DNA of 64,000 nucleotides from Polyangiaceae bacterium (GTDB taxonomy: Bacteria; Myxococcota_A; Polyangia; Polyangiales; Polyangiaceae): contig JBNKHV010000211.1 in NCBI GenBank assembly GCA_050290545.1, positions 13,463-77,462 of the forward strand, written 5' to 3'. Below, in pieces: positions 6,486-21,575 of this stretch. The notes under the pieces were generated by a model. It searched no databases and was not told the DNA's origin. It was given only the letters and a program-made list of their open reading frames with translations. The position numbers and the translations under genes are program-made. Position 1 is the first letter of the stretch; every line of letters begins with the position of its first letter.

Positions 6486-7808
6486 CTAGAGCGATGAGAG
6501 GAAACTCCACACTTCCTCGGGCATCCACGACGAGTTCTGTCCCGCGTCGTTGGGCAGTGGTGTGTGACCTCCATCGTAGGGGCACCACATGACGGGGTAT
6601 TCTTCCGCACACCCCTCGTACTGGGTGCACAGGTGCCCACCCGTGGGGGCGGCTGGTAGCGTCTCGACGTTGCAACCTGCCGCAACGGCGAATACTTCGG
6701 TCTGTCCCAGTTGACCTCCGCCACCACTTTCTTGTTGGCCCAGTGAGCCGAAGAACGGAATGGGCTCGCAGGTGGCGGGCGCAGCGATACCCCCGGCAGA
6801 GTGCGCGACTGCGGCAAGGAACACTCCCGGTCGCTGGCAGGCGAGCTCTCGCACCATGGCGCCCCCCTGACTGAAGCCCTGCACGACGACGCGCGCCGTG
6901 TCGATGCACAGATCGGCTTTCACCTGCTCCAAAATGTCGTCCACGAAAGTGATGTCGGTGTCGATGGACCAGCTTTGATCGACAGCTTCCGGCGCGATGA
7001 AGATCGTGCTTCCTTCGGACAGCTCATACAACCCGAGAAACGCCGGGTTGCCAGCGATGTTGGCAGGTGTGTTCCCGAAGCCGTGAAACCCCAAAATGAG
7101 CTGGTATGGGCGAGTTCTGTCGTAGTTCTCCGGCATGCGAAGCACGTAGCGCCGGGCCGTGCCACCGCTCATGACGGTGTTGTAGTTGTACATGTTGGTG
7201 GAGGGACTGTTCTGCAGCGTGGGCTCCGTACCGCAGCCCGACGATGTCGTCGACTCCTCCGGTTGCCCTTCAGGGACAGCCCCACCGACACCTTCTGGCA
7301 TTTCGTCGCCGGGAGCGCCAGCGGTGCCTTCCGGAGAATCGCCAGCTGTGCCACCTGCTCCTGCCACACCCTCCGGCGCAAGCGGAGTCGTGTCTGGATC
7401 TACCGCGCTCGGCTCGTCGGCGGCGCCCGCGGCATTCTCGCCAGCTTCGGCGTCGTTGGTCCCGTTCGTGGTGTCGGGCGCGCTTTGGGCTTCAGGTTCA
7501 CTGCCGTTCGTCGTGGGACTGTCGGACCCTGCCGCTCCGCCTGCCGTGGAAGTGCCTGGGCTCGACGGGCCCGCAGGCGCATCCGACCCTGCTGAACTCG
7601 CGCCCGCAGGCGCGGAAGCACTGACCGCGGCAGCGTTGACGCCACCACTCGAACCCATGGGCGTCGCGCCTCCCGCTCCAGCGGAGCTATCGGCGGCGTC
7701 GTCAGACGCGCACGCGAAGGCAAGTGTCGTCGGCAGTGCGGTGAGTGCTGCGAGCGCGACACGCTGCCAGCGATGCGTTCCTGAGAATGAAGGCTTGACG
7801 GGATACAT
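6486..7808 (-). CDS. secreted esterase lipoprotein, PHB-depolymerase/LpqC-like alpha/beta hydrolase
   Basis: Signal plus lipobox (LAFAC). A long Ala/Gly/Ser/Pro/Glu low-complexity linker precedes a C-terminal catalytic domain with LILGFHGFGN and a GxSxG nucleophile motif VVQGFSQGGAM, as in the PHB depolymerase / esterase_phd family. Confidence 0.8.
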   Translation of the reverse strand: MYPVKPSFSGTHRWQRVALAALTALPTTLAFACASDDAADSSAGAGGATPMGSSGGVNAAAVSASAPAGASSAGSDAPAGPSSPGTSTAGGAAGSDSPTTNGSEPEAQSAPDTTNGTNDAEAGENAAGAADEPSAVDPDTTPLAPEGVAGAGGTAGDSPEGTAGAPGDEMPEGVGGAVPEGQPEESTTSSGCGTEPTLQNSPSTNMYNYNTVMSGGTARRYVLRMPENYDRTRPYQLILGFHGFGNTPANIAGNPAFLGLYELSEGSTIFIAPEAVDQSWSIDTDITFVDDILEQVKADLCIDTARVVVQGFSQGGAMVRELACQRPGVFLAAVAHSAGGIAAPATCEPIPFFGSLGQQESGGGGQLGQTEVFAVAAGCNVETLPAAPTGGHLCTQYEGCAEEYPVMWCPYDGGHTPLPNDAGQNSSWMPEEVWSFLSSL

Positions 7809-8351
7809 GAGTCTCGACCTCGAGATGATTCATTGCAATGAGTGGCGCGTTTGGGGTTTACGACGGGGACGGGCAGAGTCCGGAATTTAGCATGCCAATA
7901 GGGGCGTTACGACTACCTGCGGTCCGACTGCTGCGTTCGCAACGGATCTTTCGCTCTGCCAATCCCGCGTGTCGAGCCGACAACCGTCATTGGACAACAT
8001 GCTGTCTTCCGTTTGGCGACTGAGCTAGACGCGTCTCGGGGGGGGCGTGAGCTTAGGTGGCGGGGCTCTCCAGTGGTCCGAGCAAGCCGCCTACGCGACA
8101 AACGTCGTTTCCATGCTGGCACACGCACGAAGTGTACGCTTACACAAATCCGATGCCCATTTGCGCGTCGACGCACGATACGACGGCGGGAGACAAGGGG
8201 AACGCCCGTCCAAAAATGCTCGAAGAAGACCGCGAAGGGCGTCAATCCACCAAACAGCGGCCGAGCTGCTGCTGGACGGGGTTGCGAGTTGTTGCGGGAT
8301 TGACTACTCGCAGGAGCTGTATTCTCCTAACACCGAGGGGCATCGAAGCGC

Positions 8352-10205
8352 ATGGTCAATACCGCTCCGTCTCAGTCTCAGTTCCACGACGCCGGCCGCT
8401 GGCCTCCGAGTCATCGCAGGCTGATCACGTCAAAGCTGGAAGCGCTGGCCACCGCTGCCGGTATTGAGCACATGCTTCCGAATGCGTTGGCGGCGCTGGA
8501 TGTCCTCGCAATGCCGTGGTTGGATTGGCCGGCGAACGGACGAACGCCTTGGGCATCGGATCTGACGGACGACGGCACGCCGCTGGAGTTCTCCATCAGT
8601 TACGACAGTCAGACCCCCGCGTTGCGCCTACTGACCGAGTCACAAGGTCCGGGTCGTGATCCGGCATCGAGTTGGAGCAATGGCCTGGAAGTGAACCGGA
8701 GACTTGCCTCCGACTTTGGTGCCGACCTGGAAGCCTTCGAGTGCGTGAGCCCATTGTTCACTCCAGCCTCTGAAGATTCGGGTTTTGCCATGTGGCATGG
8801 CGCGGTGCTCCAAGCTGATGGCCCTCCAGCGTTCAAGGTATATCTCAATCCGCGCCGTCATGGTCCGGAGCAGGCCCGTTCAGTCGTGGACGAAGCCCTG
8901 CAACGGTTGAAGCTGACGTCGGCTCAGCGTTTGGTGAGGGAGCTTCCCGTCGAATGGGCCACCTTCTACTTCTCGCTGGATCTCGGCTCGGCATTGGGCG
9001 GGCGGGCAAAGGTCTACCTATGCTCACCGAGCTCCACTCCGGCGTCGCTCGCCGCGGAATTGGACGCCTTGGGTCTTGCGCCTGCAGCGGAAGTAGAGAG
9101 CTGGTTGGCTCGGTTGTTGCGCGACCGGTCACCCCTGGAAAGTCGGCCAATACAGATGTGCTTGGCGTTTCGCTCTGGTCGGGACCTGCCGGAGCTCACT
9201 TTGCACGTTCCCGTGCGCAGTTACGTGAGTCACGACGCGGAGGCTCTGCATCTCGCTTGCCAGTGGTTGAGGCCCCACGACGCGGCAGCATTGACGGCAG
9301 GGGTCCAGGCCATGGCTCAGCGCCCGCTCGAAAGTGGTCGCTCCTTGATCAGCTACGTCTCTCTTCGTCCGCGGCCCGATCACCTGGGCGTGACGGTTTA
9401 TCTATCGCCGCAGCTCTACGCCGTTCCCCCGCCGAGGTGCGTGTCACTGGACAACTCGGTTAAGAGTAGCTCCTACGTGCGCGAGCTCGGCCCCAAGGCG
9501 CGAGGAGGAAGCACCCGGACGCTCCGCGCTCTGACCGATGAGATTGCGCGATGCAAAGAGCGATTGAGTCGTAAGCCGTTTCTTCGGCGGGTTCGACACG
9601 AGGGTACGCTGGCGGAAGCCAAAGGTGTCGTACGGCGGATGGCTTTCTGGGTGATGGGATTTCAGGATATCCTGCGCCTAGTGACGCGTTTCACGACGGA
9701 GCCTACGCTCACCCGCTTGGCTTGCACGCACGAAGCGGAGGACCGTGGCCACGACCACTGGTTCCTGCATGACCTCGAGCAACTCGGCTTGGCCGTGTCG
9801 CTGTCGGACGCCTTCGGCGACGACTCGGAAGTCGCGCGAGACACTGTCTACGGCCTGATCGCAGATGTGGTCAAAGCAGAGGACGATCGTGCCCGGCTGT
9901 GTGTCGTGCTTTCGCTGGAAGCTGCCGGTGTGGAGTACTTCGCGGCAACGATTGCCTTCCTGCAGCGTGTGGGAGTCGGAGACGGGTTGTTGTACTATGC
10001 CCGCTCCCACCAGACAGTCGAAGCCAATCACGACGTGTTCGAAGAGGATAAGCAGGCGGAGCTCGCGGCAATGCCTGTTTCAGAGACGGCATTCGAAGAG
10101 TGTCTACGAGTCATTCACCGCACTTTCCGGGCAATGGAGGTACTCGGAGAAGAGCTGTACGGCTGGCTCGAACCAGAGGTAGAAGGCGCGGGAGACGCCT
10201 CATGA
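8352..10205 (+). CDS. fusion protein: DMATS-type (ABBA-fold) aromatic prenyltransferase domain plus C-terminal heme-oxygenase-like (diiron-oxidase-type) domain
   Basis: N-terminal ~380 aa carry repeated K-x-Y-L strand-end motifs (KVYLNP, KVYLCSP, TVYLSPQLY) like the Lys/Tyr barrel residues of DMATS indole prenyltransferases. C-terminal ~220 aa are helical with clustered metal-ligand-like residues (HEAEDRGHDHWFLHDLE, then SHQTVEANHDVFEED), as in HO-like diiron enzymes / the 'iron-containing redox enzyme family'. Its stop overlaps the next start (ATGA at 10202-10205). Confidence 0.7.
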   Translation: MVNTAPSQSQFHDAGRWPPSHRRLITSKLEALATAAGIEHMLPNALAALDVLAMPWLDWPANGRTPWASDLTDDGTPLEFSISYDSQTPALRLLTESQGPGRDPASSWSNGLEVNRRLASDFGADLEAFECVSPLFTPASEDSGFAMWHGAVLQADGPPAFKVYLNPRRHGPEQARSVVDEALQRLKLTSAQRLVRELPVEWATFYFSLDLGSALGGRAKVYLCSPSSTPASLAAELDALGLAPAAEVESWLARLLRDRSPLESRPIQMCLAFRSGRDLPELTLHVPVRSYVSHDAEALHLACQWLRPHDAAALTAGVQAMAQRPLESGRSLISYVSLRPRPDHLGVTVYLSPQLYAVPPPRCVSLDNSVKSSSYVRELGPKARGGSTRTLRALTDEIARCKERLSRKPFLRRVRHEGTLAEAKGVVRRMAFWVMGFQDILRLVTRFTTEPTLTRLACTHEAEDRGHDHWFLHDLEQLGLAVSLSDAFGDDSEVARDTVYGLIADVVKAEDDRARLCVVLSLEAAGVEYFAATIAFLQRVGVGDGLLYYARSHQTVEANHDVFEEDKQAELAAMPVSETAFEECLRVIHRTFRAMEVLGEELYGWLEPEVEGAGDAS

Positions 10206-11575
10206 GCGACGGGCGTTCGGAAAGTCGGCCCATCGCCGAACTGATCCCCAATGGGCCGCCCACTGAAGTTGGAGACTTCGGGGGGATCATTCGAGGGAGG
10301 GCGCTCGGCACGGTCGCGCCACGCAACGCCGAAGAGTTGCGCTCGTTGGTGCGTCTGGCTCGAGGACGTGGTGTCGGTCTGACGGCGAGAGGACTGGGCA
10401 GCAGTCAGAGTGGGCAAGCCGTGGCTGACGAGTGCGTTCAAGTGTCGTTCGAAGGGCTGCGAGCGGTAGGGAGTGTTCAAGCGACGAGCACCGTCGTGCG
10501 TTGTGAGGCAGGGGCAACGTTCGAGGACGTGCTGCGTGAGACGCTGGCGGTGGGCAAGATGCCCGCGGTCGTGCCGCTGAATCCAGACTTGTCTGTCGGT
10601 GGCGTGTTATCCGCTGGTGGTCTTGGCAGTTCGAGCCATCATCACGGGTTCGCCGCCTGCTGCGTGGAAGAGCTGACGGTCGTGTTGGGCGACGGCAGTT
10701 GCGTGGTTGCCAGCAGTAGCCAGAACAGAGACGTCTACGATTGCGTACTGGGCGGATTGGGTCGCTATGGTCTGATTGCAGAGGTTGCGTTGCGGCTAGT
10801 TCCAGTGCCCCCCCAACTCGTGACAACGACTCTGCTCTACGAGGACTGCGAGTCGATGCTGAACGATCAGCTGGTCCTCTCCGCCAAGTCCGAGGTGTTG
10901 CATCTCGAGGGGGTGTCGGCAGGCTGCGTTTTGGGTATGCGGAAGGCGGATGATGGCCGGCCGGTACCTCTTCGTCGTTGGTCCTACGCGCTTCACTTCA
11001 CGGTGGAAAGTGAAGCGCGAGCCGAGGAGATTCTCGGCGCACAGAATCACGTCGCGGTGTTGAACACCCAGACTGACAGTTCCGAAGCATACCTGCGGCG
11101 CTACCAACCGCGTTTTCGGATGATGCGGGCCAGCGGCGCCTGGGAGCAGACCCATCCATGGTTCGAGGCATTGGTCAGCCCGGATGGAGCGCGCGAGTTG
11201 CTGACGGCGGCTCAATCAATGCCGCCTTTCTTTGGCGACATGATCCGGGTCGCGACGGTTCGCCACGAGGCGATCCCGGCAGGAATCGCGGTTCCGACGC
11301 GGAACTCCATCAGTGCGTCCCACTTTTTCTCGGTCGCGGTTCTCCCGGCGGGAATTCCTCAGTCCCTGGTCGACTTCGCCAAAGCTGCGTTGCGAGCGCT
11401 CGACGACCGGTTGAGCGACGTTGGTGGGAAACGCTACCTTTCCGGTTGGCTTTGCGAGCCGACGGTCGATACTTGGCGGCGGCACTACGGGTCGGAGTTT
11501 GAGCGGCTCGAGGAGCTGCAACGACGCTACAATCCGGGGAACGTTCTGCGCTCGCGGTTGAACTTCCTCATTTGA
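10202..11575 (+). CDS. FAD-linked oxidase (VAO/PCMH-type FAD-binding domain)
   Basis: Starts MSDGRSESRP at the ATG overlapping the previous stop. N-terminal FAD-binding fold motifs (RNAEELRSLVRLARGRGVGLTARGLGSSQSGQA) and a C-terminal tail (RYNPGNVLRSRLNF) typical of cytokinin-dehydrogenase / BBE-like FAD oxidases. The track ORF from 10100 carries an N-terminal extension in a region that overlaps the upstream gene. Confidence 0.85.
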   Translation: MSDGRSESRPIAELIPNGPPTEVGDFGGIIRGRALGTVAPRNAEELRSLVRLARGRGVGLTARGLGSSQSGQAVADECVQVSFEGLRAVGSVQATSTVVRCEAGATFEDVLRETLAVGKMPAVVPLNPDLSVGGVLSAGGLGSSSHHHGFAACCVEELTVVLGDGSCVVASSSQNRDVYDCVLGGLGRYGLIAEVALRLVPVPPQLVTTTLLYEDCESMLNDQLVLSAKSEVLHLEGVSAGCVLGMRKADDGRPVPLRRWSYALHFTVESEARAEEILGAQNHVAVLNTQTDSSEAYLRRYQPRFRMMRASGAWEQTHPWFEALVSPDGARELLTAAQSMPPFFGDMIRVATVRHEAIPAGIAVPTRNSISASHFFSVAVLPAGIPQSLVDFAKAALRALDDRLSDVGGKRYLSGWLCEPTVDTWRRHYGSEFERLEELQRRYNPGNVLRSRLNFLI

Positions 11576-11595
11576 CCAATCGTAAATGGAGCAAG

Positions 11596-12429
11596 ATGTC
11601 CCACGAACACAAGGTGCAGCAATTCTACGACAGCGCTCGGCACTGCTATGAGCGCATCATGGGGGAATACTGGCATCACGCCGATCCTGAGGCGGTTGCC
11701 GCGGGGCTACCGCGTTCACGCGCGTGTGAGATTCTCAGCGAGCGTGTCGTGACGCTGTGCGGTATCGAGCCGGGTCATCGAGTCTTGGATTTTGGATCTG
11801 GGATTGGCGGTCCAACGCTGCACATGGCTCGCCACACTGGGGCGTCGTTCGTCGGCGTCTGTAACAACGACCGTCTGACTCAGCGCGCTCGTGAAGCCGC
11901 GAGCACCCGTGGAGCTTCCGAAAGCGTGACGTTCCAGACTTTGGGCGACGAGGAGTACAAGCAGCTGCCATTCGACGACGAGAGCTTCGACGCGATCGTG
12001 TTCATGGAGTCCGTCTGCCACATTCCGGACAAGGCTCAGCTGTTCCGAGAGTTCGCGCGGGTCGTGAAACCTGGATGTCGCATCGGAGGGATGGACTGGA
12101 TCCAGCGTCCGTGGGGTGAGGTCCAGCGTCCAGAACAAGTCCAGGAGTTCATTGGACCCATCTGTGAGCATGTCGCCATCCCCTGGCTGGGAAGTGTCGA
12201 TGACTATGCAAATCTGATGCGGGATGCAGGGTTCCGAGTTGCCGTCGCGCGTGACCTCGTTGCCGGGCAAAAGTGTTGGGGTGCCGTGCAGGACGACGAG
12301 AACCCCGAGTGGCTCAACTATGACGGGCCCGACTTCGAGATGTTTCGACGAGGTGAAGAGGCGCTCGTCGCCGCGCGGAACGCCGGGGTCTTCTCGATAG
12401 GCACTTGGATCGCAAGAAAACCCGTCTGA
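11596..12429 (+). CDS. class I SAM-dependent methyltransferase
   Basis: Motif I VLDFGSGIGG, post-motif acidic residue, motif II-like DAIVFMESVCH. The track start at 11572 is a TTG overlapping the previous stop. The ATG at 11596 (MSHEHK) is equally possible. Confidence 0.85.
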   Translation: MSHEHKVQQFYDSARHCYERIMGEYWHHADPEAVAAGLPRSRACEILSERVVTLCGIEPGHRVLDFGSGIGGPTLHMARHTGASFVGVCNNDRLTQRAREAASTRGASESVTFQTLGDEEYKQLPFDDESFDAIVFMESVCHIPDKAQLFREFARVVKPGCRIGGMDWIQRPWGEVQRPEQVQEFIGPICEHVAIPWLGSVDDYANLMRDAGFRVAVARDLVAGQKCWGAVQDDENPEWLNYDGPDFEMFRRGEEALVAARNAGVFSIGTWIARKPV

Positions 12430-12438
12430 CTTGCTCGC

Positions 12439-14622
12439 TCAGAAGCGAAACTCCGACACGAAGACGCCACTCTCGATGACGTCGGCAGCGGGACCTGGAT
12501 CCAGATCCGTCGGGGCCGTGAGCTTTCCGACGAGCAGAAAGCCGTCGGGGCTCTCGACCAACGTCGTGGTGTTCGATCCAGCTCCGAACTGAAAGCGGTA
12601 GGCCGAGGTGCCATCCGCGTCGTAGCCAAGCACGGAGCCCGATTCGGTGAGTACCACGCCGCCGCCGGGGGCTGCCCCGAGGCCGATGAAGACCTCGTCG
12701 GGCAGCAAGTTCACGCCAATGGACGTGCCGTCCTCTCGCAGGTGCAACAGCGCAGCGGCGCTCGTGCCGTACACAAGCAGACGCTCTTCAGGAAAGTCGG
12801 GAGGAGCCAGCGACGTGCGCACGCTTCCGCCCAGCATGACGACGCCATCTGAAGTGGTCACGAGCGAAGAGCCGAAATCGGGCCAGTACATGCGATGCAC
12901 TCCTGCGGGGTAGGTCCACGTTCCCTGCTCGAAGGTTCCTCCCGCAGTCCAGACGTCCGTAGCTGATGCCGCCAGATCTGCGACGGCTCCCTTGCGAACA
13001 TCGCCCCAAAGGTAGTTCCCGTCGGGGTCGAGCTTGACGAGAAAGCCGGTGATCGCGTGCTCCATTTCTCGTTCATCAACGCCCGCAGTGGGGTCGATGT
13101 CCTTGGCTCCGAGGTTGAACGACCCGGCGCAGTAAACGTTGCCGCTACCGTCGCTGACCACGTCGAGTCCGTTAGTCGCTCTGGGCGGCCACACTCGCGC
13201 CCAGAGCAGTTCGCCGTCCCCAGCATACCTCGCGACATACGCTTGCTCGTTCGAGTTCTCGATGCCGACTTCCACGTTGCCCGGTCCCGGGTCGAAGTCG
13301 ATCACGCCGGACATCGTCCCGGTGATGAGGACCGAGCCCGACGCACCCGGGGCCACGTCACTCACGTCGATCGCCGCATTGCCGATGGCGGTGGACCAGC
13401 CGTAGTTGCCATCTGCGTCGAGCTTGCTGACGTAGGCCATACCGCCGACTCCGCCGTCGCGGATGTCGGACGTGGCCGTGGGATCGAGATCGACCTCACC
13501 TCTGAAGGTGCCCGCCAACCAAGTGACGTCGTCCGACGCTCGGGCAACCACGGGCGGGTCCGCCACGTCGAGGCGCAGTGTCCCGACGTATTCGGGCGTA
13601 CAACTGCCGCCGAACTCCGTTTCGCAATCCGGTGACGTGCGATCGCAATTGGCGTAGCCAGTGTTGCAGGTGGGCTGTCCACAGGAGTTGGGATCCGTGC
13701 AATCCAGGCTCGCGTTTTCGGCGCCACAGTCGGCGCGCCCGCAAGCTCCGCAGTTTTTCGGTGTGTTGAGCGGTTCACACTCGAGGCCCCCGGAGCAGCG
13801 TTCGTGTCCGGGATAGCAGTCGCCATGCACGCATTCCCCTTGCACGCACTGGACTTGATTGTAGTTGCTCTCGCAGGGGGTGTCGCAAGCACCGCAGTGC
13901 AGCAGACTCGTTGCCAGGTTCACACAGCCGTCGCAGAAGTCCGGGGTCTGCTCGATGCAAGCCGTCGCGCACACGAACTGACCGTCTGACTTGGTGCAGA
14001 CCGGCGAGGCAGGTGGACAGGCGTCGCCACACGCTCCGCAAGCGGCCGCCTCTCCGAGGTAGGTTTCGCAACCGCTCTGCAAGTCCTCACTGCAGTGAGC
14101 GAACCCCTCGGCACAACTTCCCGACGGAAACACACAACGACCGTCCTGACAAATGGTCTCCGAGCCAGCGACCACGTTGGGTAGCTCGTTGCAGGTGATT
14201 CCACCGCAGACTCCGGGCGGCTCGGACATCGGGCCCATCATCTCGCCGCCCACGGACGTCATGGGAGTAGGAGCCTCAGTAGCCATCGTCGTGTCCATCG
14301 CTGTTTCACCACTGCCGGCTGGTGTCGTGACAGTGCCGTCAGTGGTCACTCCCTGGTTGGAGTCAGGCGTATCCGGGTCGCGACCTGCTGTGCCGCCGTC
14401 GCTTACGGCGCTAACGTTTTCGTCGGATGCCGTTTCGCCGCTTTCGTCTGTCGTGGCTGCTGCGCTCGATCCCGTGGAGGGCGCGCTGGAGCTCGTCCCG
14501 TCTCCCGTACCTCGTTCGGATGGGGCTTCGTCCGCCGTTCGGCCTCCGCCGTGACATTGCACGAGTCCCGTCGAAAGAGCTGCGAGGGAGAGCAAGCAGA
14601 GGGTGCGCAGTGGACACGTCAT
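12439..14622 (-). CDS. secreted Cys-rich protein with SBBP-type beta-propeller repeats
   Basis: Start ATG at 14622 gives MTCPLRTLCLLSLAALSTGLVQC (signal peptide). A Thr/Ser/Gly-rich linker is followed by a ~230-aa stretch with about 40 Cys (CGACGDAC, CGACDTPC, CGACGRADC). The C-terminal half has repeated G(T/S)F...(I/V)DFDPGPG motifs characteristic of SBBP beta-propeller repeats. The track ORF to 14982 is an upstream extension without a signal peptide. Confidence 0.75.
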   Translation of the reverse strand: MTCPLRTLCLLSLAALSTGLVQCHGGGRTADEAPSERGTGDGTSSSAPSTGSSAAATTDESGETASDENVSAVSDGGTAGRDPDTPDSNQGVTTDGTVTTPAGSGETAMDTTMATEAPTPMTSVGGEMMGPMSEPPGVCGGITCNELPNVVAGSETICQDGRCVFPSGSCAEGFAHCSEDLQSGCETYLGEAAACGACGDACPPASPVCTKSDGQFVCATACIEQTPDFCDGCVNLATSLLHCGACDTPCESNYNQVQCVQGECVHGDCYPGHERCSGGLECEPLNTPKNCGACGRADCGAENASLDCTDPNSCGQPTCNTGYANCDRTSPDCETEFGGSCTPEYVGTLRLDVADPPVVARASDDVTWLAGTFRGEVDLDPTATSDIRDGGVGGMAYVSKLDADGNYGWSTAIGNAAIDVSDVAPGASGSVLITGTMSGVIDFDPGPGNVEVGIENSNEQAYVARYAGDGELLWARVWPPRATNGLDVVSDGSGNVYCAGSFNLGAKDIDPTAGVDEREMEHAITGFLVKLDPDGNYLWGDVRKGAVADLAASATDVWTAGGTFEQGTWTYPAGVHRMYWPDFGSSLVTTSDGVVMLGGSVRTSLAPPDFPEERLLVYGTSAAALLHLREDGTSIGVNLLPDEVFIGLGAAPGGGVVLTESGSVLGYDADGTSAYRFQFGAGSNTTTLVESPDGFLLVGKLTAPTDLDPGPAADVIESGVFVSEFRF

Positions 14623-18243: not shown

Positions 18244-21200
18244 TCAGAGCTCCCGACAATCCCCGAAGAACTCACGGCGACCGAAAGAATGGGGCCGCGC
18301 CTGCTTGATCAGGAGCGAGCGGTCGCCGTCGCTCAGCTTGAACTCGATCTCCATCGCGAACCAGCGTGCCTCCTGCTCGGGGTCCAGCAAGGGCCGAAAC
18401 CACTCGTGCACACCGCGTAGCGCGCAGCTGACCGCGTCCGCCTCGGCGGCACTCAATACGCGATCCGGGCTGCCACTGAGTGTGGCGACCAGACTGCTTT
18501 CGCCGTGGTAGACGAGGCGCGGGGTGCGACCCCAGCGATAGACGAACTGCTCGGTGCTGACTCCTGGGGCCGGATTGGTCACGCTGGCCTCTCCGGCTTG
18601 CGCGTTGATGTAGTAGATGTCTCCGCGATCCGGATCGAGCACGTTGCGGCTCACGGCAACGCCGTTGGCCTCCTCCGACAGGGAGGCGGGGTGGACCAGC
18701 ACCCCCATCGCGATGCTCTCGTCATCGATGTTGGCGAAGGCCCGCTCGTCGTAGGCGCGCAGGTTCCACAGGCTCGCCCACACCGTTCGCAACGCGTCGT
18801 CGACGCGGCGCTCGGGATCGTCTAGCTCGGCACTGACCGAGGTGTACAAGCCAGCGCCATTGAAGTTCGGCAGGTCTTCTGTGTTGCTACTGCTGCGGAA
18901 ACGCACCCGGCGGTTTCCGAAGCGCTCCCTCACCGCCTCCTCCACATCGCTCAGCAGTTCGTCGTCGACGGGCGTCTGCATGATGAGTTCTCGCACGGCG
19001 GCCAGGCCGAGTGCCCGCGTCTTCGGATCGGCGACGAATCCGGCGTCTTGCTTCAGCTCATCGAGCAGTTCATCTGCCCCGCTGGCCTTCAGGTGCTCGA
19101 GGGAGTGCACCACGGGAATGGCGAAGGGCTGGGCCGGGATCGTCGGGCGCACCGGCTCGCTACAGTAGGAGACGGTGATGTCGATGCGGGCGAGTTCGGC
19201 CATTTGCGCGGCCTTGGCGCCGATCGCCGGCAAGCTCGACAAGTCGTGATCGCTGAGAGGTTGAACGCCCCGTAGCTTCTTGTCGAGACGCGGGGCGACT
19301 GCGGGGCCTTGCTGAACGCGCTGTTGCCAGAACGCGGCCGCTTCTTCGGGGTCAGCCAGTTCGACGTCGACGCCGGTCGCGGATACTTCCAGCCGCACCA
19401 ACTCGTCCAAGTAGGGTGCGAGGCGCTCACGGGCGTTTGCCAGACTGGCGTTCGGCGTGCCGCGATTTTGGCTCAGTACGTTGACGTGCGCCAAGGGCGT
19501 TTGAAAGGCTTCGGTGATCAGACCGCCGACCAAGGGAATGTCGTTGGGTACGTCATCCGTGATGACGACGACGTTCGAACCGAGTGCTGCGTCCTCGAGT
19601 GCAGACGCAGTGACGAAGCGCAGGGTGCCGTAGGCGATGCCTTCCGTCAGTGGCTGATAGGTGACGTTCATGAACGGCGCGTTGGGCGCCACGATGGGAA
19701 GCGTGCCCTCGATTTCACGGACGCGCATGACTTGAGCGTCACCTTGCGGGCGCAGTACCCAACGTCGAGGGTTCCAGGTGTGTTCGATGGTCGAGTAGTA
19801 GCCATCGCGCATCGCGGCTGCATCGATGGAATCACCGGTCGAAAACTCGACCGACGCGATACCTGCTCCAGCATGTTCGACCAACGTGCCGAGGTGAAAG
19901 CGCCGACCGCTCGTGGCGCGATATTCCGCGTTCGAGAAGTCGACCCAGCCTTGATAGAACTCGTCGTACTGGACCGGGTCGCAGCGATCGAGCTCGGGCT
20001 CCTCGTAAATCCGCTCGCGCACGAACGTGTAGTGTAGCGGCCAGCGCGCTGCGGCCAGAAGGTGCACGAGCCCCGGTGCCTCGAAGTCGGCGACGAACTT
20101 CACGGGCGCAATCCCGAGTTGGCTGGCGCCAGCGGCGAGCTTTTCGAAGTCGGCGGGTGTTCGCAGCGCTCGGAGGCGGTCACCGATGTCGCGCTCGGCG
20201 ACCACCTCACAACCATTGGCGGCTGCTGGCGTTGCGTTGCGGCAGAAGCGCGACAAAACGGAGTCGTCTGGCACGCGGGCGAGCGTCGCCCCTTCTGGCC
20301 AGCGCATGAAGTCGACCCGGTCCAATACCTCGCCCTCATCGAAGAGCGTCAATACTCCCTCGAACTCGGGATCCGACTCGAGCTCACTCAGTACATCGCT
20401 CGGAACCTCGAGCGCAACACGTTCACCAGGCGCTAGCGTCTCGTCGGGGGGCAGCACGAGGTTCGTGCCATCTGCTGTCGTCGGCCACGGTAGAGACGGC
20501 TTGTGGGGGCTCAGGTTCAGCTGAAACTCCTCCAGAGACACCTCTGACTGGCCAGCGTTGAGCAGTTCGATGAACGCCGGCTCGTTCGTCCCGGGTCGCA
20601 GCGCGAGTTCGCTGATCCAAAGTGTCTTGGCGGTTGGGGGAAACGGGTCGGGTAACTCGTAGGCTTCGAATTCGACGTCGGACTCGAGACTCGGTGGTGG
20701 AGGCGGCGCGCAAGTGGTTGCGTTGCGCCGCCCCGGTGATGCGTAGCGACACGATTCGAAGTTGCCGGCGGCATCTGGAAAGCGCGCCAGCACCTGGTTT
20801 TGTCCGAGCGGCGGGATCACGACCGCGTCAGTGACGAAGCCGTCCGTTTCGAGCCACACTTCGTCGCCCGAGGAGCTGAGTTTGAAGGGGAGGTGGTGTT
20901 CACCTTGTTCTGGTTCGTCGTCGGCAAACACGAGCAGGCGTTGCCCTGGGTTCAACGTGCCGTTGGGCAGACGAGACGTCGCGCCCGATGCGTCCGCGAT
21001 TCGGTAGTCCGACAGCTCCAATGGCGCCTCGCCTGCGTTCACCAATTCCAGCCAGTCGTCCGCCTCGCCCAATTCGTCGATCCAGGCGCCGTCGTTGCTG
21101 GCCATCAATTCGTTGATGAGCAAAGGCCCTGCGCCGGGTGAACCTGCATCCGACCGACCCGCGTCGCTGTTTGAGGGGGAGGTCGGGGTGGTGGGTGGGG

Positions 21201-21450
21201 CTCCGGCGTCCGACACCTCCGGTGGCGTCGGGGACGACGCAGCGTCGCGCTCTGGGCCCGCGTCCGCCGAGTCTGGCATCAGTACCTTCAAGGGCACGCT
21301 TGGGGCGCGGCCGCCGTCCTGCTCCCGTTCACCCGCGCTGTCACGGTTTGTGCCACACGCAGTGAATGCCGTGGCACAGAACGCCGCCAGCGCGAAGCTC
21401 GCCCAGCAGCCGTGATTCCCAAGCGATAGTGGGGACTTCTCGCGCTTCAT
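18244..21450 (-). CDS. large lipoprotein: 2x lamin-tail domain (LTD) plus PEP-utilizing-enzyme mobile domain plus PPDK_N-type ATP/PEP-binding domain
   Basis: ATG at 21450 gives MKREKSPLSLGNHGCWASFALAAFCATAFTACG (lipobox). Two LTD-like repeats (LLINELMASNDGAWIDELGEADDWLELVNAGEAPLELSDYRI and LWISELALRPGTNEPAFIELLNAG). A His-containing segment TPLAHVNVLSQNRGTPNA resembles the phosphohistidine swivel domain. Then RVRFRSSSNTEDLPNFNGAGLYTSV matches the PPDK_N / PEP-synthase ATP-grasp signature (RSSAxxEDLPxxSFAGQ). Confidence 0.8.
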   Translation of the reverse strand: MKREKSPLSLGNHGCWASFALAAFCATAFTACGTNRDSAGEREQDGGRAPSVPLKVLMPDSADAGPERDAASSPTPPEVSDAGAPPTTPTSPSNSDAGRSDAGSPGAGPLLINELMASNDGAWIDELGEADDWLELVNAGEAPLELSDYRIADASGATSRLPNGTLNPGQRLLVFADDEPEQGEHHLPFKLSSSGDEVWLETDGFVTDAVVIPPLGQNQVLARFPDAAGNFESCRYASPGRRNATTCAPPPPPSLESDVEFEAYELPDPFPPTAKTLWISELALRPGTNEPAFIELLNAGQSEVSLEEFQLNLSPHKPSLPWPTTADGTNLVLPPDETLAPGERVALEVPSDVLSELESDPEFEGVLTLFDEGEVLDRVDFMRWPEGATLARVPDDSVLSRFCRNATPAAANGCEVVAERDIGDRLRALRTPADFEKLAAGASQLGIAPVKFVADFEAPGLVHLLAAARWPLHYTFVRERIYEEPELDRCDPVQYDEFYQGWVDFSNAEYRATSGRRFHLGTLVEHAGAGIASVEFSTGDSIDAAAMRDGYYSTIEHTWNPRRWVLRPQGDAQVMRVREIEGTLPIVAPNAPFMNVTYQPLTEGIAYGTLRFVTASALEDAALGSNVVVITDDVPNDIPLVGGLITEAFQTPLAHVNVLSQNRGTPNASLANARERLAPYLDELVRLEVSATGVDVELADPEEAAAFWQQRVQQGPAVAPRLDKKLRGVQPLSDHDLSSLPAIGAKAAQMAELARIDITVSYCSEPVRPTIPAQPFAIPVVHSLEHLKASGADELLDELKQDAGFVADPKTRALGLAAVRELIMQTPVDDELLSDVEEAVRERFGNRRVRFRSSSNTEDLPNFNGAGLYTSVSAELDDPERRVDDALRTVWASLWNLRAYDERAFANIDDESIAMGVLVHPASLSEEANGVAVSRNVLDPDRGDIYYINAQAGEASVTNPAPGVSTEQFVYRWGRTPRLVYHGESSLVATLSGSPDRVLSAAEADAVSCALRGVHEWFRPLLDPEQEARWFAMEIEFKLSDGDRSLLIKQARPHSFGRREFFGDCREL

Positions 21451-21575
21451 GTGGGGAGGGAGCGACGTGGATTCAGACATCGAATGGTCCATCTACAAGC
21501 ACCGTGCCAAGCGGGTCCTGTTCGTGGGGGGCGCCGATGCGCAAGAGTGTTGACGGACAGCTAGAGGTGGCGGGG

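Follow-up and report, generated by a model that had tools for sequence, protein, structure and literature searches.

Introduction

The heme-oxygenase-like diiron oxidases (HDOs) AetD and SktA both act on brominated L-tryptophan, which AetD converts to a nitrile and SktA to skatole and cyanide. In the aet and skt pathways, decoration of the ring precedes processing of the side chain, and AetD and SktA act on C5-substituted tryptophans. Ring decoration also comes first in Mara1, a fusion of a dimethylallyltryptophan synthase (DMATS) with a tryptophanase, in which prenylation is followed by removal of the side chain within one polypeptide. Here we describe a gene from a Polyangiaceae bacterium (contig JBNKHV010000211.1) that joins a DMATS-type prenyltransferase (PT) domain to an HDO domain in one 617-aa protein. 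It lies at positions 8352-10205 (+) of the 64,000-nt stretch that was analyzed, referred to here as the window. The protein carries both folds and their ligand sets, and the PT, the HDO and a flavin adenine dinucleotide (FAD)-linked oxidase encoded next to them are evolutionarily coupled. We regard it as reasonably probable, from homology and gene linkage, that the protein is a bifunctional enzyme that would prenylate L-tryptophan and then remodel its side chain at a diiron center, before the FAD oxidase and a methyltransferase act.

Each half of the protein belongs to a known family, and Mara1 had already established that a DMATS can be fused to a tryptophan side-chain enzyme. An earlier note on this DNA, which predicted the fusion from the letters alone, was not aware of a characterized enzyme joining these two folds. 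We found no description of a DMATS-HDO fusion, nor of a triad of PT, HDO and an oxidase resembling cytokinin dehydrogenase (CKX), in the literature searched, although most subscription journals lay outside that search and an earlier description is possible. A 2026 mini-review of HDOs contains no DMATS-HDO fusion and mentions a second domain for SznF only. In the databases, these proteins are labeled only as 'DMATS type aromatic prenyltransferase' or 'iron-containing redox enzyme family protein'.

Results

The open reading frame (ORF) is present exactly as the earlier note had claimed, a single polypeptide of 617 aa with an ATG start. Its third-position GC content of 0.69 supports coding, with most neighboring genes slightly higher at 0.72-0.77, in a window of 63% GC. 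An identical 617-aa ORF was found in the NCBI metagenome-assembled genome (MAG) GCA_050288925.1 and in two independent Logan assemblies. Within the protein, the PT domain spans aa 1-365 (8352-9446, +), ordered from about aa 20, and the AetD-family HDO domain spans aa 387-610 (9510-10181, +). Pfam matches Trp_DMAT (PF11991) at aa 60-312 (E 5e-13; 49.5 bits, gathering score 25) and Haem_oxygenas_2 (PF14518) at aa 426-561 (E 6e-7; 29.9 bits, just over the gathering score of 28.9). The domain related to the Mara1 partner, the pyridoxal phosphate (PLP)-dependent beta-eliminating lyase domain PF01212, is absent from the protein by Pfam and structure search, the C-terminus being PF14518/HDO. An AlphaFold2 model of the full-length protein, built with 20 homologues, has a mean predicted local distance difference test score (pLDDT) of 85 and a predicted template-modeling score (pTM) of 0.62. 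Between the domains lies a linker (aa 366-386; 9447-9509, +) that is predicted to be disordered, with pLDDT <50, and that differs in length and sequence between homologues. Because of this disorder and the pTM of 0.62, the model would support a linker that tethers the two domains in proximity, and the direct channeling of a prenylated intermediate envisaged in the earlier note cannot be claimed from it.

The N-terminal assignment to the DMATS family was supported by sequence and by structure. All three K-x-Y strand-end motifs on which the earlier note had relied are present: KVYLNP at aa 162-167 (8835-8852), KVYLCSP at aa 220-226 (9009-9029) and TVYLSPQLY at aa 348-356 (9393-9419). Compared with PDB sequences, aa 31-362 matched bacterial 5-DMATS and 6-DMATS (E 6e-36), and also PriB, IptA and CymD. 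The AlphaFold2 model contains ten beta-strands flanked by helices in alpha-beta-beta-alpha (ABBA) repeats from aa 78 to 351, as in a PT-barrel, and Foldseek aligned the domain with PriB, 5-DMATS, 6-DMATS and IptA at a target-normalized template-modeling (TM) score of 0.85-0.88 and 28-32% identity; a non-ABBA fold was not seen. The matched structures of these four enzymes were solved with L-tryptophan bound. The motif DDGTPLEFS (DDxTPxE; 8568-8594, +) contains Glu79, by analogy the catalytic glutamate with which DMATS enzymes hydrogen-bond the indole NH, and the strand ends supply the basic and tyrosine residues expected to hold the diphosphate (K162, Y164, R218, K220, Y222, R265, R289 and Y350; 8835-9419, +). 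We take the glutamate and the diphosphate ring to correspond to the equivalent residues of FgaPT2. E79, R92 and the eight strand-end residues are invariant in 20 of 20 aligned homologues.

The alignment also offers a clue to the position of prenylation. According to a review summarizing Ostertag et al. 2021, His329 of 6-DMATS is the base beside C6, and the V259Q/H329Y double mutant shifts prenylation to C5. The window protein has Q268 and Y335 at these positions (within 8835-9419, +) of the printed alignment, the numbering of which agrees with V259 and H329 of 6-DMATS. Because Q268/Y335 is the Gln/Tyr pair of 5-DMATS, C5 of L-tryptophan is most likely the prenylated position, a best guess that rests on two residues from the review's summary.

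The C-terminal half has the all-helical, heme-oxygenase-like diiron fold that the earlier note had predicted. Its closest relative of solved structure is AetD, which aa 383-599 match along nearly the whole length (E ~1e-6 to 1e-7 against PDB sequences; phmmer 2e-7). When a separate model of the domain (pLDDT 87, pTM 0.85) was compared with the PDB by Foldseek, the 20 best matches were all AetD (TM 0.74-0.79, 20-22% identity), followed by BesC, CADD, UndA, TenA, HamA, PolF and RohS. These matches assign the domain to the heme-oxygenase-like fold, which has three core and four auxiliary helices, and the matches of both halves of the protein lie well outside chance. The note's comparison with the SznF/UndA/BesC class is therefore right at the level of the HDO superfamily, but the relevant subfamily is that of AetD and SktA, in which a phenylalanine replaces the extra glutamate of SznF.

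To place the metal site, we rebuilt the native numbering of AetD from the printed alignment and verified it against the published ligand residues. In AetD, the ligands are D76 and H79 of core helix 1, E140 of core helix 2, and H172, E176 and H179 of core helix 3; F48 stands in for the auxiliary-helix (aux-alpha2) carboxylate of SznF and stacks on the substrate, while Y167 hydrogen-bonds the carboxylate of the substrate, whose amino acid moiety chelates Fe1. By alignment, the window equivalents are D464 and H467 in core helix 1 (9741-9752, +), E523 in core helix 2 (9918-9920, +; in LSLEAAG, aa 520-526), H553, E557 and H560 in core helix 3 together with the tyrosine Y548 (9993-10031, +), and F437 in place of the aux-alpha2 carboxylate (9660-9662, +). 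Of the two ligand-like clusters proposed earlier, HEAEDRGHDHWFLHDLE lies at aa 460-476 (9729-9779), where only D464 and H467 align with AetD ligands, and SHQTVEANHDVFEED at aa 552-566 (10005-10049), where only H553, E557 and H560 do; both clusters thus contain ligands, but between them only five, and the sixth, E523, sits in a helix that had not been flagged. At the pocket position equivalent to S214, HMMER and MAFFT differ by one position (Ala or Met), and this residue was not used.

The domain thus has a predicted complete set of three histidines and three carboxylates of the substrate-triggered AetD/SktA type. Although the overall identity among the 15 closest fusions (group 1) is only 38-60%, F437, Y548 and the ligands are invariant among them, with the exception of position 523, which is Glu in 13 and Asp in 2. 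Since the residues equivalent to F48 and Y167 are conserved along with the ligands, the substrate is probably an alpha-amino acid bound as in AetD.

We then asked how often the two domains occur together. A search of 5.8 billion proteins found ~20 proteins of ~600 aa with a PT and an extra domain, and when the HDO domain was compared exhaustively with 1.84 billion representatives by phmmer, 360 relatives emerged. Among the 186 HDO-containing proteins that were retrieved, 45 are PT-HDO, 4 HDO-FADox (where FADox is the FAD oxidase), 3 FADox-PT-HDO, 1 PT-HDO-FADox and 1 HDO-PT (P0113). The other 132 were counted as stand-alone HDOs, some of them on ~1-kb contigs that may be fragments, and one, P0070 (666 aa), actually carries an N-terminal cytochrome P450 ahead of a same-clade HDO with every ligand intact. 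The architecture search suggested in the earlier note therefore uncovered a recurrent family whose partners also occur unfused and in other orders.

The same picture emerged from a survey of loci in 80 species-representative genomes with a related PT, in which reading frames were checked for stop codons. True in-frame PT-HDO fusions occur at 17 of the 80 PT loci; at 10 the PT is followed by the HDO as a separate gene, adjacent or overlapping by 4 nt, and at 5 the HDO lies on the opposite strand. The separate pairs include cultured Archangium violaceum Cb vi76 and two A. gephyra; tblastn had first suggested fusions in cultured Archangium strains, and the frame check showed separate adjacent or overlapping genes. 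Where record titles were given, nearly every host belongs to the Myxococcota (Polyangiaceae, Sandaracinaceae, Nannocystales and Archangium), and these relatives, together with the GC content of 63%, point to a myxobacterial origin of the window. The cyanobacterial PT relatives among the species-representative loci have no HDO nearby, and a Sandaracinaceae-MAG fusion used as a query for homologues matched no named Sandaracinus isolate. The genome scan used the pattern DD[GH][TS]P[FY]E[LF]S, which misses the window motif DDGTPLEFS, so that nothing can be concluded from what it did not find.

The FAD oxidase is part of this association. In 11 further species-representative loci the gene immediately after the fusion is an orthologue (36-43% identity), and in another two an orthologue comes after PT and HDO genes that lie side by side; unfused triads of PT, HDO and FAD oxidase occur at loci L087 and L088. 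The flavoprotein is tied to the HDO step by HDO-FADox fusions, namely P0032, P0057, P0067 and P0076 (a class of ~670-730 aa) and a single 728-aa ORF beside a stand-alone PT (L054:11412-13598, -). All three enzymes are joined in triple fusions of two orders, PT-HDO-FADox and FADox-PT-HDO (P0047, 1080 aa; P0036, P0106 and P0135, ~1010-1070 aa). Because the three recur next to one another and in several fusion orders, we read them, from gene and domain order, as a recurring three-enzyme pathway module of myxobacteria.

In the window, the fusion gene, the FAD oxidase and a methyltransferase form a compact operon-like cassette. The ATG of the FAD oxidase overlaps the TGA of the fusion gene (ATGA, 10202-10205), which suggests translational coupling of the two. 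The oxidase (457 aa; 10202-11575, +; gene call in L001) is cytokinin-dehydrogenase-like, with Pfam FAD_binding_4 and Cytokin-bind domains; its longest mechanical ORF begins at GTG 10100, inside the fusion gene, and ATG 10202 is the likely true start. Plant CKX proteins are its closest PDB relatives (E 8e-31), over both the FAD-binding and the substrate-binding domains, with BBE, EncM and DprE1 far more distant. Aligned with CKX8, however, it has LGSS in place of GHS (Ser for His) and Leu/Asn in place of the Asp of WTDY. We take the GHS histidine to be the covalent-flavin site and the WTDY aspartate to be the cytokinin-amine-binding residue of CKX, and as both are absent, the identity of a cytokinin dehydrogenase was rejected; the protein has a CKX-like fold with, as its sequence indicates, a different substrate.

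The third gene encodes a 277-aa S-adenosylmethionine (SAM)-dependent small-molecule methyltransferase (11596-12429, +; gene call in L001; Pfam Methyltransf_11/25/23) that starts at ATG 11596, the mechanical ORF starting at TTG 11572. Its PDB relatives are 3bus (annotated Methyltransferase), MitM and a D-glucose O-methyltransferase. The same three genes recur in L004 around a 60%-identical fusion homologue with unrelated flanks, the methyltransferase there being 84% identical, but across the species-representative loci the methyltransferase is only sporadically linked to the fusion. Methyltransferase homologues (51-72%) also lie a few kb from stand-alone PTs without a nearby HDO in L039, L056, L067, L070, L072 and L084, and the association of this gene with the PT family seems to reach well beyond the fusion. 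The cassette genes (8352-12429) have a third-position GC of 0.69-0.70, compared with 0.72-0.77 for most neighbors, and together with the recurrence in L004 with unrelated flanks this hints that the cassette is horizontally mobile. A promoter/terminator scan of 7700-12700 was uninformative: nothing promoter-like appeared, and the only terminator-like site was weak and lay on the other strand.

No biosynthetic Pfam domains were found in the window ORFs that flank the cassette, and a wider biosynthetic cluster was not seen. Divergent from it at 6486-7808 (-) is a 440-aa protein with a long low-complexity, Ala/Gly/Ser/Pro-rich N-terminus and a C-terminus that weakly resembles an alpha/beta-hydrolase (esterase); it probably has no connection with the cassette. 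An ORF of 1082 aa at 18244-21492 (-) carries lamin-tail and pyruvate phosphate dikinase AMP/ATP-binding domains. Of the remaining large ORFs in the window's first 22 kb, most lack a Pfam match.

Several relatives depart from this architecture. First, P0020-P0022 (~604 aa) have an HDO-like N-terminal domain of ~230 aa before the PT in which all six ligand positions are replaced (E/N/Q/R/D/P); by sequence, this domain appears to be a degenerate pseudo-HDO kept in fusion with the PT. These proteins probably correspond to loci L032, L036 and L037 (Myxococcaceae MAG, Hyalangium). Second, P0027 and P0028 (~590-605 aa) combine a DMATS with a classical Haem_oxygenas_2 domain that has an ELGxGxxxxTH motif, E/H ligands and a glutamate at the Tyr167 position; at ~16% identity to the window HDO, they are probably an independent DMATS-HDO fusion. 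Third, an Archangiaceae MAG encodes a stand-alone HDO (L055, ~9466-10023, -) that shares 39% identity with AetD, the same level as SktA; ~1 kb away on this myxobacterial contig, on the other strand, is a DMATS gene that likewise stands alone. Lastly, in cultured Sorangium sp. So ce260 (L086:8001-8780, +) a same-clade stand-alone HDO adjoins a nitronate-monooxygenase-family gene; it has neither a PT nor a CKX-like gene within 8 kb and may work in a different context.

Discussion

The sequence of reactions that we favor would begin with the PT domain, which would prenylate the benzene ring of free L-tryptophan with the dimethylallyl group of dimethylallyl diphosphate (DMAPP), probably at C5, as homology suggests. 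The HDO domain would then bind the prenyl-tryptophan, with its amino and carboxylate groups chelating Fe1, and activate O2; the alanyl side chain would be oxidatively cleaved or rearranged to leave a prenyl-indole with a one-carbon substituent at C3, which may be a nitrile (as with AetD), a methyl group formed along with cyanide (as with SktA) or an aldehyde. CKX enzymes oxidize the allylic CH2 of a dimethylallyl group. From its gene linkage, the CKX-like flavoprotein would oxidize the product, with either the benzylic/allylic CH2 of its prenyl group or its C3 substituent as the site of attack, and the downstream methyltransferase would methylate it in the last step. We place the PT first because the HDO keeps amino-acid-binding features, the relatives of the PT use free L-tryptophan, and aet, skt and Mara1 all decorate the ring first.

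Four observations weigh against this account or parts of it. First, the PT domain scores 90.9 bits against the DMATS subfamily model NCBIfam TIGR03429, below its cut-off of 163.85. Second, Q268 is kept only within the protein's own subclade, which bears on prenylation at C5. Third, AetD turns over unsubstituted L-tryptophan, which would allow the reverse order. Fourth, identity between the HDO domain and AetD is only 23%, compared with 39% between AetD and SktA. The window HDO appears from its sequence to be a separate clade outside AetD/SktA, and its reaction cannot be equated with the formation of a nitrile or of skatole: at this identity, and with AetD and SktA already differing in product, the outcome of the reaction is not readable from the sequence.

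The fourth point leads to the alternative that survives best, in which the HDO performs some other oxidation of prenyl-tryptophan (N-oxygenation, desaturation, decarboxylation or excision of the full side chain) and yields a different product class. The position of the myxobacterial clade as an outgroup to AetD/SktA, at 23% identity, would accommodate it; the 2026 mini-review describes identical primary ligand sets serving very different HDO reactions, and the aet and skt clusters have no counterpart of the tightly coupled CKX-like flavoprotein. We nevertheless think it unlikely, as the domain keeps the features specific to AetD, namely the F48 and Y167 equivalents and the lack of an aux-alpha2 carboxylate, whereas the N-oxygenases of the superfamily typically have a fourth carboxylate (same mini-review).

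A second alternative reverses the two steps, so that the HDO would turn L-tryptophan into an indole nitrile, skatole or aldehyde that the PT then prenylates. DMATS enzymes often accept a range of indole derivatives, the third observation above points the same way, and one retrieved protein, P0113, is a fusion in the order HDO then PT. Against this, the nearest characterized relatives of the PT are all prenyltransferases of free L-tryptophan, both characterized HDO pathways and Mara1 decorate the ring before the side chain, and PT followed by HDO is the commonest order of genes and domains. We consider the reversed order rather improbable.

The two remaining alternatives fare far worse. The C-terminal domain might be a non-catalytic scaffold or regulatory pseudo-enzyme, with the PT alone active, as the PT-fused domain of P0020-P0022 with its six lost ligand positions illustrates, but the six ligands, F437 and Y548 are kept in the window protein and in 15 of 15 group-1 fusions at 38-60% identity, which indicates purifying selection on catalysis and makes this very improbable. 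An assembly or frameshift artefact that merged adjacent genes deserves almost no credence, since, even though PT and HDO genes in several genomes are separated by tiny gaps or overlap by 4 nt and a single indel could merge them, the identical ORF is present in three independent assemblies and in-frame fusions occur in 17 species-representative genomes and in 45 retrieved HDO proteins, each with a linker sequence of its own.

Returning to prenylation followed by side-chain oxidation, a bolder and doubtful extension is that the PT, the AetD-like HDO and the CKX-like flavoprotein constitute an unrecognized but widespread myxobacterial route from tryptophan to prenylated or dienyl indoles, possibly of the indiacen type, with an HDO of a third outcome. 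The flavoprotein would either desaturate the prenyl group or return electrons to the diiron center; the latter would explain the HDO-FADox fusions. As for indiacens, 3-formyl prenyl-indoles would have fitted the aldehyde shunt of AetD, but a synthesis paper shows that indiacens are 4-dienyl indoles unsubstituted at C3. The link is unsupported and offered as speculation only, and no indiacen biosynthesis is reported in the literature searched.

The family is of interest beyond this locus. AetD and SktA represent one diiron scaffold with two outcomes on tryptophan, and the clade described here adds a third branch, which is divergent and has the ligand set of the other two; with a prenyl group in place of bromine and a flavoprotein as partner, it would offer a natural experiment on what controls the outcome of an HDO reaction. 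The multiple independent fusion orders are unusually strong comparative evidence for cooperating enzymes. The three-gene cassette is small enough for direct synthesis and expression, and the unfused versions in cultured Archangium strains make genetics feasible. Should a prenylated indole nitrile or something related prove to be the product, the cassette would be a one-operon biocatalysis route to such scaffolds.

Compared with known systems, the window protein resembles each of several enzymes in part. With the bacterial L-tryptophan DMATS enzymes (5-DMATS of Streptomyces coelicolor, 6-DMATS of Micromonospora olivasterospora, PriB and IptA) it has in common the fold, the glutamate and the diphosphate residues, but those are stand-alone actinomycete proteins of ~360-400 aa, to which the window protein adds a C-terminal oxidase domain of ~230 aa. 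Its neighbor, the FAD oxidase, has plant CKX as its best PDB match but does not keep the GHS histidine and WTDY aspartate of CKX. SznF, as described in the 2026 mini-review, likewise has an HDO covalently joined to a second catalytic domain of the same pathway; however, it combines an N-oxygenase HDO of three histidines and four carboxylates with a cupin, unlike the window fusion in partner fold, ligands and chemistry. AetD and SktA share with the HDO domain the heme-oxygenase-like fold (TM ~0.77), identical D/H, E and H/E/H ligands, the Phe and Tyr, and probably a ring-decorated tryptophan as substrate, but they are cyanobacterial and work with a halogenase, whereas the window HDO is myxobacterial and occurs with a prenyltransferase and a CKX-like flavoprotein. 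The likeness to Mara1 lies in the arrangement, an N-terminal DMATS followed by a C-terminal tryptophan side-chain enzyme, with fused and unfused versions coexisting and the order reversed in other lineages. In Mara1 the C-terminal enzyme is a beta-eliminating lyase that depends on PLP and yields a prenyl-indole unsubstituted at C3, while the partner here is an O2-dependent diiron oxidase, with an FAD oxidase in the same module.

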